Assembly (NCBI GenBank): GCA_046731695.1
Contig: JBKPLR010000001.1
Coordinates: 4,442-68,441 of the forward strand
Length of the DNA: 64,000 bases
Source of the DNA: Actinomycetota bacterium
GTDB lineage: Bacteria; Actinomycetota; Thermoleophilia; Gaiellales; Gaiellaceae
Direction of reading: 5' to 3'
A program made the position numbers and the translations under genes. The notes beneath the pieces were generated by a model. That model was not told the origin of the DNA. It did no database searches and worked only from the letters and a program-made list of their open reading frames with translations. The stretch's first letter is position 1. Every line of letters starts with the position of its first letter. This document shows positions 16,897 to 63,102 of the stretch, piece by piece.

Positions 16897-16978
16897 GCTC
16901 CCTGTTCACGGCGCGCCCAGCCTCCTCCCCACTGCGAGCCTACTGCGGAAACCGTCACGCGTGGGTGACGCGAATGTG
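16897..16978 (-). repeat. Conserved intergenic element, copy D (diverged)
   Basis: Sense (minus) strand: GTCACCCACGCGTGACGGTTTCCGCAGTAGGCTCGCAGTGGGGAGGAGGCTGGGCGCGCCGTGAACAGGGAGC. Shares the GGGGAGGAGGCTGGGCG core and AGGGAGC tail with copies A-C. Confidence 0.7.
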
Positions 16979-17006
16979 CCGAAAGCGTGTCGGTTTCGAG
17001 GGCGGG

Positions 17007-20762: not shown

Positions 20763-20986
20763 CGCCGCTGCTGTTCCGCCTCGCGGGCTCGGATGTTCCG
20801 CCACGTCCAGCCCGTGGCGACGACGAACGCGCCGATGGCGGCGACAATGGCCCACAGCACGCGGCCGCCCGTCAGCGTGGCGATCACGACGACGATCACC
20901 GCGAACGCCCCGTAGACGAGCGCGCTGTCGCGGTAGGGACGCGGCGAACGCCGGCGCCCAGGGTTCTTGCCGTTCCTGCCGCTCAT
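20759..20986 (-). CDS. Small two-TM membrane protein embedded in the hut operon
   Basis: 75 aa, [60 protein letters not shown].... High GC3; ATGA overlaps with both the hutH stop and the hutU start. Confidence 0.5.
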
Positions 20987-22521
20987 CGCAACTCACCGAC
21001 CTCGGCCTCGACCGCGTCGACGAGGGCGCCCTCGCGTACGGTCCGGGCGACTGCCTCGATGTCCCCCGAAAGCTGGCGGTCGTCGCGCAGCCTCGCGGAC
21101 AGCGACCTGACATGCTCCCGGGCGGCGCGGACGCCGATGCCGGGCTGCAACGGCGCCAGGAACTCGACGCCTTGCACCCCGGCGAGTAGCTCGATTGCGA
21201 GGACGCGCTCGGCGTTGTCGAGCACTTGCCAGACCTTTAACCCCGCGGCGTTGCCCATCGACACGTGATCCTCCTGGCCTGCGCTCGTCGGAATCGAGTC
21301 GACGCCGGCCGGATGCGAGAGCACCTTGTTCTCGCTCACGAGCGACGCCGCGACGTACTGCGGGATCATGAAGCCGGAGTTGAGGCCTCCGTCTCCGGTG
21401 AGAAAGGCCGGTAGTCCCTCCGAGAGGCTCGGGTTGACCAAGCGCTCGATTCGCCGTTCCGAGATGTCTGCGAGCTCGGCGACCGCCATCGCCATCGCAT
21501 CGAGCGCAAAGGCGAGCGGTTGTCCATGGAAGTTGCCGTTCGAGACGAGCAGGTCGTCGTCCACCAGGACGAGCGGGTTGTCGGTCGCGGCGTTCAACTC
21601 GGTGGTCACGGTGTAGTCGACGTAGTCCAGAAGGTCGCGGCTCGCCCCGTGAACCTGCGGCGCGCAGCGCAGCGAGTACGCGTCCTGCACCTTGTCGCAC
21701 CAGCGGTGTGCCTCGTTGATCGCCGAGTCCTCGAGCAGCCGCAGCACGTTGTTGGCGGCGGCGATCTGCCCGCGCAGCGGCCGTGCGGCGTGGACCTGCG
21801 GAATGAAGCTGCTCCGCGAGCCCTGAAGGGCCTCGATCGAAACGGCGCATGCGATGTCCGCTGTCTTCGCCAGCCGCCGCGCGCGTGCGAGCCCGAGCGC
21901 TCCGAAGGCCGCCATGAACTGCGTCCCGTTCACGAGCGAGAGCCCTTCCTTCGCCTGCAGGCGGACCGGCTGAAGGCCCGCGGCCGCGAGCGCCTCTGAC
22001 CCGGGAAGGAGCTTCCCTTCGAACCACGCCTCGCCCTCGCCGATCAGCGGGAGGGCGAGATGCGCGAGGGGAGCGAGGTCTCCACTCGCGCCGACCGATC
22101 CGCGGCTCGGCACGCGCGGGAGCACGCCGCGGTTGAGGCAGTCGACGATCAGCTCGACGGTGTGGACATGGGCACCCGAGAACCCCTTCGCGAGCGCATT
22201 CGCCCGGAGGAGCATGGCCGCGCGCACGATCTCCGGTGTGTACGGCTCGCCGACCCCGCAAGCGTGGCTGCGAAGGAGCCGGAGCTGGAGCTCTTCCGCG
22301 AGCTCTTCGGGAATGGAGCGCGAGACGAAACGGCCGAAGCCGGTGTTGACGCCGTAGGTGTGCTCCCGCTTGCCATGGACGGCCCGCTCGACGAGTTCGC
22401 GGGCGGCGCGCATCCGCTCGCGCGCGGAATCGGCGATCTCGACGGGCGCGTGCTCGACGGCGACGGCCCAAACGTCGGCGAGACCGAGGTCGTCGCCGGT
22501 GAGAGCCTTGCTCTCGATCAC
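20983..22521 (-). CDS. hutH: Histidine ammonia-lyase
   Basis: 512 aa with the MIO-forming [14 protein letters not shown] motif; GTG start. Confidence 0.95.
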
Positions 22522-22527
22522 GCCGCG

Positions 22528-22533
22528 AGTCTA
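22528..22533 (-). promoter_or_regulatory. -10-like TAGACT, 6 nt upstream of the hutH GTG
   Basis: Minus strand reads TAGACT-cgcggc-GTG. Confidence 0.45.
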
Positions 22534-22566
22534 TCCCGCGTGGATCAGACGCCTCCGGCCGCGACA

Positions 22567-22650
22567 GGGTCCCTTAGTACGGTCCGCCCGGCCTCCTCCC
22601 CAAGGCGATCGTAACGAGGAAATGCGCACGTGTCTGTCACGGATTCGTGC
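22567..22650 (-). repeat. Conserved intergenic element, copy C
   Basis: Sense (minus) strand: CACGAATCCGTGACAGACACGTGCGCATTTCCTCGTTACGATCGCCTTGGGGAGGAGGCCGGGCGGACCGTACTAAGGGACCC. Confidence 0.85.
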
Positions 22651-22670
22651 CGGATGTGTGTCGGCGCTCG

Positions 22671-23552
22671 CTACTCCTCGAGCAGCCTTAGCTCGAGCAC
22701 GCGCGAAGCGTCGAAGCCGTCGATCCGGAGCATGGCGCCGGCAGCCGCGACCGCCGCGCCGGCCGGCATCAGGCCGACGAGCTCGGACCCGACGACGTCC
22801 GCTCCGCGCGCCGCCGCTTCCCGCTCGACGCGTTCGACGATCTCGTGCAACGCCGCGGCCTCGTAGTCCTCGACGTTCATGCTCACCTGAACGATCCCGG
22901 CGCGCGGCAAGTCGAGCCCCAGCGCGCGCACCCCGGGAAAACCGCCGTCCCGCTCGCGCACCGCGCGCGCGGCTTCTCGTGCCGCCTCGAGCGACCCGCG
23001 CAGGTTGACGTTGAAGGCGATCAGCGGCCGTCGCGCGCCGACGAGGACGCCGCCAGCCCGCTCGTCGAGACGCGACGGCCCGAAGTCCGGCGCGAGCTCG
23101 CCGTTCTCCAACCGTCGCGCCAGCTCCTCCACGCCTCCCTGCCGGAAGAACGCGGGCCCGCGACCCGGCGCGAGCTCTCCGTACAGGAACACCGGCAGCT
23201 CCAGCTCCTCCCCCACGCGCCCCGCGAGCATCTGCGCCGCCGCCGAAGCACGCTCCATCTCGTCGCGCGCGAGCGGCACCACCGGCACGACATCGGCGGC
23301 TCCAATCCGCGGATGGGCCCCCTCGTGCCGACGCAGGTCGATTCGCTCCTTCGCACAGGCGATCCCGACCAGCAGCGACTCCACCAGCTCCCCCTCATCC
23401 CCGACAAGCGTGAATACCGACCGGTTGTGGTCCTCGTCCGCGTGGACATCGAGCAGCCGAGCCCGCCCATCGAGCGCCGCAGCCAAGGCGTCGATCGTCG
23501 CCCGGTCGCGGCCTTCCGAGAAGTTCGGCACCGACTCGAGCGGCCGCGGCAT
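22671..23552 (-). CDS. ftcD: Glutamate formimidoyltransferase (FtcD N-domain type)
   Basis: 293 aa, MPRPLESVPNFSEGRD...NRSVFTLVG...HPRIGAADVVP, typical of the formiminotransferase family. Confidence 0.9.
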   Translation of the reverse strand: MPRPLESVPNFSEGRDRATIDALAAALDGRARLLDVHADEDHNRSVFTLVGDEGELVESLLVGIACAKERIDLRRHEGAHPRIGAADVVPVVPLARDEMERASAAAQMLAGRVGEELELPVFLYGELAPGRGPAFFRQGGVEELARRLENGELAPDFGPSRLDERAGGVLVGARRPLIAFNVNLRGSLEAAREAARAVRERDGGFPGVRALGLDLPRAGIVQVSMNVEDYEAAALHEIVERVEREAAARGADVVGSELVGLMPAGAAVAAAGAMLRIDGFDASRVLELRLLEE

Positions 23553-37469: not shown

Positions 37470-37486
37470 CGAACCGGCACGCTTTC

Positions 37487-37570
37487 GTCACGGTCTCGTG
37501 ACAGACACGTGCGCTTTTCCTGGTTACGCTCGCCTCGGGGAGGAGGCCGGGCGAACCATGTTCAGGGAGC
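37487..37570 (+). repeat. Conserved intergenic element, copy A
   Basis: GTCACGGTCTCGTGACAGACACGTGCGCTTTTCCTGGTTACGCTCGCCTCGGGGAGGAGGCCGGGCGAACCATGTTCAGGGAGC, between the convergent cax and serine hydrolase genes. Confidence 0.85.
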
Positions 37571-56498: not shown

Positions 56499-56582
56499 TC
56501 ACACTTCCGTGACGGACACGTGCGCCCTTTCTCGGTACGATCGCCTCGGGGAGGAGGCTGGGCGAACCGCATTAAGGGACCC
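56499..56582 (+). repeat. Conserved intergenic element, copy B
   Basis: TCACACTTCCGTGACGGACACGTGCGCCCTTTCTCGGTACGATCGCCTCGGGGAGGAGGCTGGGCGAACCGCATTAAGGGACCC, in the 173-bp ftsI-murE gap, opposite in orientation to the dcw genes. Confidence 0.85.
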
Positions 56583-56589
56583 GCACGGT

Positions 56590-58293
56590 TTACGGCGTGA
56601 GGGACGAGGCCGTGGACGTCGTCGGCGCGTCCGGCGTGATGCCGCCCTCGAGGTACTGGAGGTCGAACTTCGCGATCTGGGAGAACGCCGGCGCCGCGAC
56701 GACGCCGCCCCAGATCGCGCCCTGAGGCTCGTCGACCGAGACGAGGATCACGAGCCGCGGCCGAGACGCGGGCACGATCCCGACGAACGAAGCGACGTAG
56801 CGCGAGTCCGAGTACGTCCCGTCCGAATCCACCTTTGCCGCGGTCCCGGTCTTCCCCGCAACCTGGTACCCGGGCACAGCGGCGAGCGTGCCGGTGCCGT
56901 CGAGCACGACGTTCTTCAGCATGGCGAGCAGTTGCGCGGAGACAGCGCGCGAGACGATCCGCCGCCGCGGCTGAACTACCGATGCCCGGTCGCCGACGTG
57001 GTGGACGAGATGGGGCCGCACCCACACGCCGCGGTTCGCGATTGCCGCGTACGCGGAAGCGAGCTGGATGGGCGTGACCGCGATTCCCTGCCCGATCGGC
57101 ACGTTCCCGATCGTCGACCCGGACCAGTCCTTCTCCGGAACGACGATGCCGGGGCTCTCGCCTGGGTAATCGATCCCGGTCCGCCGGCCGAACCCGAAAC
57201 GTGAGATCCACTGCGCTAGCCGGTGCTGCCCCAGCTTCTCGGCCAGCGTGATCGCGCCGACGTTCGAGGAACGCGAGAGAATCTGAGCCACGGTCATCGT
57301 CTCGGTCCCGCGAGGCTCGGCGTCGTGGATGATCCGGTCGGCGACGTGGATCGAGTACGGAAGGACGAATCTCGTCGACGACGACACGAGCCGGTCTGAC
57401 AACGCCCCGGCGACGGTCACGACCTTGAGCGTCGACCCCGGCTCGTACGTGTCCGTCACGGCACGGTTGCGCTGGAAGACGCGCCAGATCTTCGGATAGA
57501 CGTTGGCGTCATAACCAGGCGCCACGGCCATCGCAAGCACTCCGCCGGTCCGCGGGTCGAGCACGATTGCCGTCGCGCTCTTTGCGTGCCAGCGGGCCAC
57601 CGTCTGCTTGAGCACGACCTGGGCGTTGGCCTGAATCGTGTGGTCGAGCGTCAGGTACACGTCGCGCCCGTCACGCTCCGTCTGCGACTGGACCGTGTCG
57701 ATCACCTGGCCGGAGGCGTCCTTGATGATCCGTTCCCGACCCGGTCGGCCGCCGACCACCTTCTCGAGCGAGAGCTCGAGCCCGGCGAGGCCGTGGTTGT
57801 CGACACCCGCGTACCCGAGCACCTGCGAAGCGAGCGCGCTCTGCGGGTAGAACCGACGCTCCTCGGGATAGAACCCAAAGCCGGCGAGGTGCCGCCGTTG
57901 GAGCTTTGCTGCCCGCGCAGGGTCCGCCTTCCGCGCGATGTAGACGAAGCCACGCGTCTTGTCCGAGAGCGCAGTTTCGACCTCAGCCGGATCGAGCCGC
58001 AGCAGCTGCGCGGCGACCGCCGCCTCGCGGCGTGCGTCCTGCACGAGTCGCGGGTCGGCGTACACCGTCGTCGCCTGCTCACCGATCGCGAGCTGGACCC
58101 CGCCGCGGTCGAAGATCGTCCCCCTTGCGGCGGGAATCGTGACGTCCTGGCTGTGCTGGCTGGCGGCCACGCGCCCGAATGAGCTCGCACGAACTCCTTG
58201 CAGCCACGCAGCGCGCAGGAAGGCGATGCCAAACGCGAGCGCGAAGACCGCGAGCAGCAGCCGGATGCGGCGGTTGGTGACCCTCGCGTTCAC
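56590..58293 (-). CDS. ftsI: Class B penicillin-binding protein (FtsI/PBP2-type transpeptidase)
   Basis: 567 aa: N-terminal TM, dimerisation domain, SxxK PGSTLK, SSN, KTGT. Confidence 0.9.
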   Translation of the reverse strand: MNARVTNRRIRLLLAVFALAFGIAFLRAAWLQGVRASSFGRVAASQHSQDVTIPAARGTIFDRGGVQLAIGEQATTVYADPRLVQDARREAAVAAQLLRLDPAEVETALSDKTRGFVYIARKADPARAAKLQRRHLAGFGFYPEERRFYPQSALASQVLGYAGVDNHGLAGLELSLEKVVGGRPGRERIIKDASGQVIDTVQSQTERDGRDVYLTLDHTIQANAQVVLKQTVARWHAKSATAIVLDPRTGGVLAMAVAPGYDANVYPKIWRVFQRNRAVTDTYEPGSTLKVVTVAGALSDRLVSSSTRFVLPYSIHVADRIIHDAEPRGTETMTVAQILSRSSNVGAITLAEKLGQHRLAQWISRFGFGRRTGIDYPGESPGIVVPEKDWSGSTIGNVPIGQGIAVTPIQLASAYAAIANRGVWVRPHLVHHVGDRASVVQPRRRIVSRAVSAQLLAMLKNVVLDGTGTLAAVPGYQVAGKTGTAAKVDSDGTYSDSRYVASFVGIVPASRPRLVILVSVDEPQGAIWGGVVAAPAFSQIAKFDLQYLEGGITPDAPTTSTASSLTP

Positions 58294-62313: not shown

Positions 62314-63033
62314 TCATGCGGTGCGGCGCGCAGGCTCGGCAGACGCGAGCAGGCGGTACCCAACCCCCCAGACATTGAGGACGCAGTCCTCGGCACCGGC
62401 GAGCGTGAGCTTGCGGCGCAGGCGCGACGCGTGCGAGTCGAGCGTCCGAGTCCGACCGAGCGCAACGAAGCCCCAGACCTCGCGTAGGAGCTCCTCCTTC
62501 GTGAACACGCGCGTCGCTTCGGACGCGAGCTTCACGAGCAGCTCGTATTCCTTCGCCGCGAGCGCGACCTGGAGGCCGTGCACGGTGACGCGGCGCGTCG
62601 GCCGGTCGATTGCAATCGGGCCGGCGGCGAGCCGGTCTTGCTCGGCCGGCCTCGTCCGACGGAGCACGGCGTGGATCCTCGCGACGAGCTCTTCGTAATG
62701 GAACGGCCGCGGAACGAAATCGTCGCAGCCGCGCTCGAAGGCGTGCACGCGGTCGACAGCGTCGGCGCGCGCCTCGCCGAGCACGATCACGGGCACGTTC
62801 CGGTCCCAGGCACGGCCGGGCTCGCCTTCGCGCAGGCGGCGACAAATCTCGGTCCCGGTCGCGTCCTCCAGCCCGCCCACGAGCACGAGGTCGGGCCGGG
62901 CCCGCTCAACAAGCTCGAGCGTCAGGTCCTGCGCGTCGGCGCCGAGCACCTCGAACCCCTCGCTCATGAGGTGCCGCTCCAGGAAGTCCCGGGTTCCCGG
63001 CTCGGCCTCGGCGAGAAGAAGCGCCCGCGACAT
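62314..63033 (-). CDS. OmpR/PhoB-type response regulator with a degenerate (aspartate-less) receiver domain
   Basis: 239 aa with a winged-helix output (LAAKEYELLVKLA...VWGVGYRL). The receiver lacks canonical residues: LLLAEAEP, DLVLVGG, VIVLG, FVPRPF. Confidence 0.85.
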   Translation of the reverse strand: MSRALLLAEAEPGTRDFLERHLMSEGFEVLGADAQDLTLELVERARPDLVLVGGLEDATGTEICRRLREGEPGRAWDRNVPVIVLGEARADAVDRVHAFERGCDDFVPRPFHYEELVARIHAVLRRTRPAEQDRLAAGPIAIDRPTRRVTVHGLQVALAAKEYELLVKLASEATRVFTKEELLREVWGFVALGRTRTLDSHASRLRRKLTLAGAEDCVLNVWGVGYRLLASAEPARRTA

Positions 63034-63040
63034 GCGGTCG

Positions 63041-63046
63041 AAGCTA
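63041..63046 (-). promoter_or_regulatory. -10-like TAGCTT, 7 nt upstream of the response regulator ATG
   Basis: Minus strand reads TAGCTT-cgaccgc-ATG. Confidence 0.4.
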
Positions 63047-63102
63047 CCGACGTGTGCGTGCCGCGGCTAGATGTCCTTTAGCGCGAAACTGCGCCGAGCT
63101 CT

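Follow-up and report, generated by a model that had tools for sequence, protein, structure and literature searches.

The gap between ftcD and hutH raises the question of what a repeated, G-rich element is doing there, and whether it belongs to the transcript of either gene. We studied this element, copy C, in a window of 64,000 nt, that is, the whole stretch of DNA that was analysed (70% G+C, from a source assembly of 2.2 Mb that is 74% complete). The initial annotation had placed copy C between the ftcD stop codon and the hutH promoter, in the G-rich orientation and ending about 34 nt from the hutH hexamer. The minus-strand sequence bears this out, with a measured distance of 33-34 nt. The G-rich strand of copy C is the sense strand of both genes, and ftcD lies upstream of and co-oriented with hutH in 29 of 30 loci of the genus, the thirtieth being cut by a contig end. 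Coordinates and identities are collected in Table 1.

Table 1. Features of the ftcD-hutH locus, other copies in the window and further products of the module. Identity is the mean pairwise value over 25 orthologous hutH-locus copies.
Feature	Position	Strand	Basis or value
ftcD (glutamate formimidoyltransferase-type)	22671-23552	minus	Pfam FTCD_N 8e-50, FTCD 2e-20
ftcD stop codon TAG	22673-22671	minus	sequence
Element copy C, conserved part	about 22664-22568	minus	sequence
Upstream array of the cassette, four 5-nt units	22625-22662	minus	11-bp spacing, consensus of 27 copies
Units GACAC / GGCAC / GTGAC / GTGCG of copy C	22662-22658 / 22651-22647 / 22640-22636 / 22629-22625	minus	
Putative cassette -10 hexamer TACGAT (TAnnnT)	22608-22613	minus	T, A and final T kept across copies
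Predicted start (22601/22600) and conserved initial transcribed region	22568-22601	minus	orthologue identity
Unconserved 34-nt stretch, hutH core promoter region (about -45 to -13)	22534-22567	minus	identity 0.385
hutH -10 hexamer TAGACT, 6 nt before start codon	22528-22533	minus	kept in 30/30 orthologues
hutH (histidine ammonia-lyase), GTG start 22521-22519	20983-22521	minus	Pfam Lyase_aromatic 2e-194
Copy C segment -75..-41			identity 0.50
Copy C segment -40..-14			identity 0.70
Copy C segment -13..-1			identity 0.86
Copy C segment +1..+22	22601-22580	minus	identity 0.98
Copy C segment +23..+34			identity 0.69
Copy C segment +35..+60			identity 0.385
hutH codon positions 1 / 2 / 3			identity 0.90 / 0.93 / 0.62
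Window copy	16897-16995	minus (G-rich)	
Window copy C	22567-22664	minus (G-rich)	
Window copy	37472-37570	plus (G-rich)	
Window copy	56506-56595	plus (G-rich)	
OmpR/PhoB-type response regulator, near the mraZ end of the dcw cluster	62314-63066	minus	Trans_reg_C 74 bits
Second product, upstream of tgt	L019:2400-2501 (G000 C1 ~74623)		also L024, L021, L012, L014, L023
Third product	L016:2440-2501 (G000 C36 ~32541)		also G000 C122 ~28706, C36 ~43085, C22 ~5319, C58 ~20696

In Actinomycetota, transcription and translation of a leaderless mRNA begin at one point, the start codon, and the promoter carries TAnnnT about 7 nt ahead of it. The spacing of TAnnnT from the first start codon was scored for 1238 long ORFs of high GC3 in the genome, and gave counts of 125 at 6 nt, 53 at 7 nt, 27 at 8 nt and 44 at 9 nt, over a background at other spacings of about 3 per offset. 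Given this excess, leaderless-type promoters are habitual in the genome, and hutH falls into its modal class, N6. The TAGACT-N6-GTG previously read ahead of hutH is present, the six bases being CGCGGC, and TA[G/C]ACT is found in all hutH orthologues (n = 30 species of the same genus). These share GGGATA[G/C]ACTCG-N3-5-[G/A]TG and identical first codons, while the 30 nt ahead of that block are essentially unalignable, and the TA[G/C]ACT-N6/7-start geometry is kept even in the four species that lack the element. No Shine-Dalgarno sequence was found upstream of the hutH GTG, and because an in-frame TAG lies within TAGACT, four codons before the GTG, no start codon farther upstream is possible; the Lyase_aromatic profile begins at residue 12 of the protein. 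hutH thus shows TAnnnT 6-7 nt ahead of its start, no Shine-Dalgarno sequence and no possible upstream start, as actinomycetal leaderless genes do, conserved in 30/30; the likeness differs in that it belongs to hutH, the neighbour of the element, and that the hutH transcription start is a predicted one. The case that hutH has its own leaderless-type promoter is as strong as sequence can make it.

Since hutH has this conserved promoter of its own, copy C lies outside the leaderless hutH mRNA, and to that extent its earlier placement outside the hutH mRNA holds. It may not hold for every hutH transcript: no terminator lies between 22601/22600 and hutH, so that hutH may have a further transcript, with a leader that includes the G-rich part.

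Whether the element carries a promoter itself can be judged from its copies. Aligned on the hexamer, 27 copies give the consensus G.CAC / GgCAC / GTcaC / GTGcg in a strict 11-bp register, the units, of the G[T/G]CAC type, spanning about -62 to -26. A TTTc block follows, and then an invariant TAnnnT, with the fourth unit ending about 10-11 bp ahead of it in all copies. The T, A and final T of this hexamer are present in 13/13 full copies, in most partial copies and in 25/25 hutH orthologues. In four partial sister copies an ATG stands 6-7 nt past the TAnnnT of the module, and three of the four open real-looking reading frames, namely comEA and ORFs of 76 aa and 88 aa (GC3 0.83-0.86 for the latter two), the fourth opening a 10-codon frame only. 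This spacing is the leaderless geometry of the genome, and therefore the module hexamer behaves as a -10. The element is probably a promoter module, whose firing we infer from these features, and the most likely transcription start is one of the first two Gs of GGGGAGGAGG, at 22601/22600 on the minus strand. Of the roles initially considered for copy C, that of an independent transcript is accordingly the one that has gained support, as the element carries a promoter module of its own.

We consider copy C to be, with better than even probability, an ancient, position-conserved and Gaiellaceae-wide promoter cassette, autonomous and of the activator type, that starts a non-coding RNA. The four 11-bp-phased units would take the place of a -35 and would be activated by an OmpR/PhoB-type response regulator; the invariant TAnnnT would serve as the -10, transcription beginning 6-7 nt later; and the first 22 nt of the RNA would be conserved as primary sequence, complementary to the anti-Shine-Dalgarno sequence and followed by no start codon. 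Such a cassette would be neither the hutH promoter, nor a hut operator, nor part of the leaderless hutH mRNA. Several observations weigh against this reading. The cassette matches no canonical -35 of the TTGACA type and no sigma-70-type consensus promoter; neither a terminator nor excess structure follows the conserved part, so that the 3′ end of the RNA is undefined; many copies face a convergent gene at 23-60 nt, which is awkward for a constitutive promoter; and the invariant 22-bp block could instead be a DNA site bound by protein.

Copy C is under purifying selection, which is strong at +1..+22. This segment is the most constrained sequence of the region and exceeds the first and second codon positions of hutH, whereas the array is only 0.50-0.70 identical among the 25 orthologous hutH copies. 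The predicted 5′ end of the transcript, GGGGAGGAGG, contains two overlapping GGAGG, after which no start codon follows, and GGAGG is perfectly complementary to CCUCC in the 3′ end of the 16S rRNA of the genus. A match to the anti-Shine-Dalgarno sequence that lacks a start codon means that the product would be a non-coding RNA or the 5′ end of an RNA. As it is the sequence that is conserved and not a fold, what reads this RNA, or the DNA block in its place, would be a base-pairing partner or a protein, and we propose the G-rich 5′ end as the acting part of the RNA.

The same pattern of conservation could be produced by a site of about 95 bp at which a DNA-binding protein complex assembles on phased half-sites and an asymmetric 22-bp block. 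It would organise the nucleoid, or separate transcription units in the manner of an insulator or roadblock, with no meaningful RNA. The insulator that had been among the initial options would be of this kind, and the data favour it no more than they contradict it. Conservation of primary sequence with an RNA fold on neither strand is in keeping with such a site, as are the stable positions of the copies across the genus, an orientation unrelated to the flanking genes, and the frequency with which a convergent gene has its stop codon right beside, or inside, a copy. However, the invariant TAnnnT drives leaderless ORFs at a fixed distance in the sister copies, the G-rich block begins exactly at the predicted transcript start, and in sister promoters that block is replaced by other transcribed sequences that are likewise conserved. 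Exchangeable transcribed sequences behind the module fit a promoter with exchangeable products, and we regard a purely DNA-level site as unlikely.

A riboswitch-type role had been doubted from the start, and rightly so. RNAalifold on the 13 full copies gave -4.05 kcal/mol with 1 compensatory pair for one strand and -1.85 kcal/mol with 0 for the other, amounting to neither fold nor covariation. Rfam returned no match at gathering scores in the window or at 24 other loci, and none at E<=10 in the ftcD-hutH gap. The neighbours of the copies are unrelated, often convergent, so that the element is frequently antisense to them, and there is no consistent 5′ UTR position. A conserved mini-ORF was suggested by a 31-codon frame that is open in copies A-C. 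Its start codon is not conserved, a GTG being present in only 44/138 copies in one frame and 74/138 in the other; ORF lengths scatter; and variability shows no 3-nt periodicity. The element is multi-copy and intergenic, as a selfish repeat of the MITE or REP kind would be, but it is asymmetric and lacks terminal inverted repeats, occupies the same site in 25/30 species with one clean loss, and is under the purifying selection described above; no match to it was found in plasmids or phages. A mobile repeat, a mini-ORF and a riboswitch are, even when taken together, scarcely credible.

The cassette has a long history at the hutH site. It lies between ftcD and hutH in 25 of the 30 species, is absent from four and is a remnant in one, which amounts to a natural experiment on one leaderless promoter. 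The ftcD-hutH gap measures 141-245 nt with the cassette versus 47-72 nt in the four empty-site species. In a tree of hutH nucleotide sequences, the four species with empty sites group as a single clade inside those with occupied sites; the cassette was therefore ancestral at this site and lost once. The hutH -10 and start are untouched in the four species with this clean loss. Since the hutH promoter is kept with or without the cassette, it is independent of it; the contrast in occupancy separates the two and indicates which species to compare. The remnant (L173, upstream of hutH in G002 C9) is a natural internal deletion that removed the -10 and the G-run but left the array and the hutH promoter in place.

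The cassette may nevertheless be coupled functionally to hutH. It could be a second, activator-gated promoter of the hut operon, whose transcripts read through the leaderless promoter and occlude it. The resulting hutH mRNA would carry a leader of some 80 nt, in which no Shine-Dalgarno sequence lies close to the GTG. Cassette and hutH run in the same direction, and the cassette has stayed at the site in most species; no terminator or excess hairpin occurs from +35 to the hutH -10; and the distance from the first G of the cassette to the end of the hutH -10 hexamer is held at 71-77 nt, despite the stretch between being only 38.5% identical. A cassette followed by a leaderless promoter is moreover a recurrent layout: at least five other orthology groups have a gene that follows a G-rich copy in the same direction and brings a TAnnnT-N6-8-start of its own. 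This recurrence indicates that the cassette is not the promoter of those downstream genes. Known tandem promoters with occlusion share with this locus two co-oriented promoter-like sites, here separated by about 80 bp in which no terminator lies; the present case differs in being known from sequence and in that the cassette is dispensable for the architecture of the hutH promoter in one clade. That clade of four species, having deleted the cassette with no change to the hutH promoter, speaks against such a switch, as does the fact that most family copies have no co-oriented gene to control. The constant spacing also has another explanation: at the empty sites the ftcD stop codon lies as far from the hutH promoter as the cassette does elsewhere, and the simplest reading would be packing against a hutH promoter footprint of about 45 bp. 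We think a tandem-promoter switch rather unlikely, even though, within the favoured reading of an autonomous cassette, a transcript that reads through into hutH is as plausible at copy C as a short RNA. If the switch were real, activation of the cassette would alter the hutH mRNA in quantity and in translatability alike, and read-through would make the locus a model for switching of one gene between leaderless and leadered mRNAs.

A role at the other end of the gap, in ending ftcD transcription or in stabilising the ftcD 3′ end, includes the terminator that had been put forward as an option. Copy C directly follows the ftcD stop codon, 22/65 copies in the family follow a co-oriented gene, and in 18 of 27 measured copies a co-oriented stop codon lies 57-122 nt upstream of the G-run. 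The structural features of a terminator are missing: a stem-loop with a U-tract was found at 0 sites after the conserved part, there is no consensus structure, and folding does not exceed that of shuffled sequences. In 30 orthologues, the stretch ahead of the hutH -10 has a mean z of +0.15 versus dinucleotide shuffles. Over 113 family copies, the 46 nt downstream show complementarity to the G-rich arm, and folding, no better than reversed or shuffled sequences. Hairpins that had been glimpsed by eye in orthologues, between the G-rich arm and downstream sequence and ahead of the hutH -10, vanished against shuffled controls. Of the 65 copies with both neighbours scored, 43 have a divergent upstream neighbour and 22 a co-oriented one, a ratio of two to one, and in the empty-site clade ftcD and hutH do with only 47-72 nt between them. 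The terminator option thus finds no support, and any ftcD 3′ element is very improbable.

Another option raised initially, an operator of the hut genes, is not compatible with the distribution of the element in the genome, where the promoter module is present at 34 or more unrelated places. The three other copies in the window are 73-87% identical to copy C over 77-99 nt, and for a 25-nt piece of the element 0 chance matches are expected. At E 1e-30 to about 1e-2, an nhmmer search with a profile from the four window copies detected 13 full copies in the genome and about 15 partial ones that share only the 5′ 65 nt of the cassette, and a promoter-only profile gave 34 matches at E<1e-3. The neighbours of the copies include hutH, a metallo-beta-lactamase-fold gene, sugar or glycosyl transferases, an aminotransferase, dapA, tgt, era, hemD, hpf, ftsI, smpB, phoH and others. 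An element at so many unrelated loci is no hut-specific operator, and Pfam annotation of 40 neighbouring genes revealed no common theme, so that a coherent regulon is also rejected. A link to rRNA promoters is likewise without support, since in two genomes the 700 nt ahead of the 16S gene contain no array.

Orientations of the upstream and downstream neighbours relative to the G-rich direction are (-,-) for 25, (-,+) for 18, (+,-) for 12 and (+,+) for 10 of the 65 copies. More than half of the family copies face the 3′ end of a convergent gene, whose stop codon often lies as little as 23-60 nt away from the predicted start. Relative to GC skew, the four window copies point in both directions, which lends nothing to a replication-related polarity of the Ter or KOPS kind. 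The order, strands and spacing of the other three around hutH are kept in a nearly complete genome of the genus (G058), and the copy between ftsI and murE is found in another such genome as well (G049). As they are syntenic in relatives, all four window copies are old residents, including the antisense one inside the dcw cluster.

The full cassette was found in 18/18 sampled genomes of the genus and in 0/12 genomes from four other families of the order. A search for the G-rich block allowing up to 2 mismatches was positive in 35/151 genomes and 23/89 genera of Gaiellaceae, with 1 match for the reversed control pattern. Public genomes yielded more than 118 matches, nearly all in Gaiellaceae or in soil MAGs of Gaiellales. 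One exact match is on a 2.4-kb contig binned as Anaeromyxobacteraceae (DASWDS010000376.1, L072), which is most likely a mis-binned Gaiellaceae fragment. We found no publication on promoters or leaderless genes of Gaiellaceae. The promoter class has about 35-45 members per genome in this lineage, one that abounds in soil and is hardly cultured.

The architecture of the promoter is known in kind. As in promoters of the OmpR/PhoB family, the cassette has three to four tandem direct repeats with 11-bp periodicity, in an array that stands in for the -35, its last unit about 10 bp short of the -10. It differs from them in the fourth unit, GTGCG/GTGAC, and in products that are mostly short, non-coding G- or C-rich sequences, with no coherent gene set. 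The PhoP boxes of M. tuberculosis are TCACAGC-N4-TCACAGC, of which tri- and tetra-repeats are bound more tightly (PMC4832192), and the MtrA motif is cited as GTCACAgcg in PMC2945938. The core of the cassette units, [G/T]CACA[C/G], is near to TCACAGC and GTCACA, a likeness judged by eye. At least eight OmpR/PhoB-type regulators (Trans_reg_C) are encoded in the genome, none of them linked to an array. One of these genes, close to the mraZ end of the dcw cluster, falls within the window (Table 1); its product is a candidate activator of the cassette, among others.

Small RNAs present in several copies under one two-component regulator are exemplified by the streptococcal csRNAs, under CiaR, and the Vibrio Qrr RNAs, under LuxO. 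The cassette resembles these in having paralogous copies, one activator-type promoter and a conserved single-stranded sequence related to the ribosome binding site: 13 copies in the genome have the G-rich start, and this start region is 98% conserved. The csRNAs carry an anti-Shine-Dalgarno sequence and defined terminators, whereas the cassette RNA carries the Shine-Dalgarno-like sequence itself. Compared with both csRNAs and Qrr RNAs, the cassette has no conserved terminator or fold, and its RNA is a predicted one. The main product of the class, a 22-nt RNA start held more strictly than protein-coding positions, fits no known function. If the RNA is real, it would be a candidate regulator of translation initiation in an organism in which a large share of genes is leaderless.

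The promoter architecture has precedents; the main product, and the use of one module for G-rich, C-rich and coding starts, are undescribed. A second conserved product would begin with GCGGGnGGnGGGTGG, followed after 8-12 nt by CCCCACCC and after about 3 nt by GGGTGGGG. Its C-run is predicted to pair with either G-run, and the second G-run is at the Shine-Dalgarno position for tgt, era, an SDR gene and hemD. The arrangement resembles a switch that would sequester the Shine-Dalgarno sequence, and has no Rfam match. A third product would start with CCCAACCCCCACCCATT behind a module hexamer of the form (T/C)ACC(A/G)T; this sequence is C-rich and anti-Shine-Dalgarno-like, and most of it is complementary to the G-rich starts that the other two types have. 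It can be speculated that one module makes two sets of RNAs, a Shine-Dalgarno mimic (GGGGAGGAGG, 13 copies) and an anti-Shine-Dalgarno-like one (CCCAACCCCCACCC, 5 copies), which would titrate 30S subunits or each other and so shift the balance between Shine-Dalgarno-led and leaderless translation. hutH is a leaderless gene directly behind one G-rich unit. We hold this idea to be decidedly doubtful.

Two further features of the module were observed. A GC-alternating palindrome of the TTCACGCGCGCGTGAA type, which opens no ORF, lies about +45 to +60 past the predicted start at four loci (L008, L014, L024 and L011). The small ORFs behind two of the sister copies, of 76 codons (L018, G000 C45 ~11481; GC3 0.86) and 88 codons (L022, G000 C46 ~23550; GC3 0.83), both start 7 nt past the TAnnnT of the module and are candidates for leaderless small-protein genes of the cassette promoter class.
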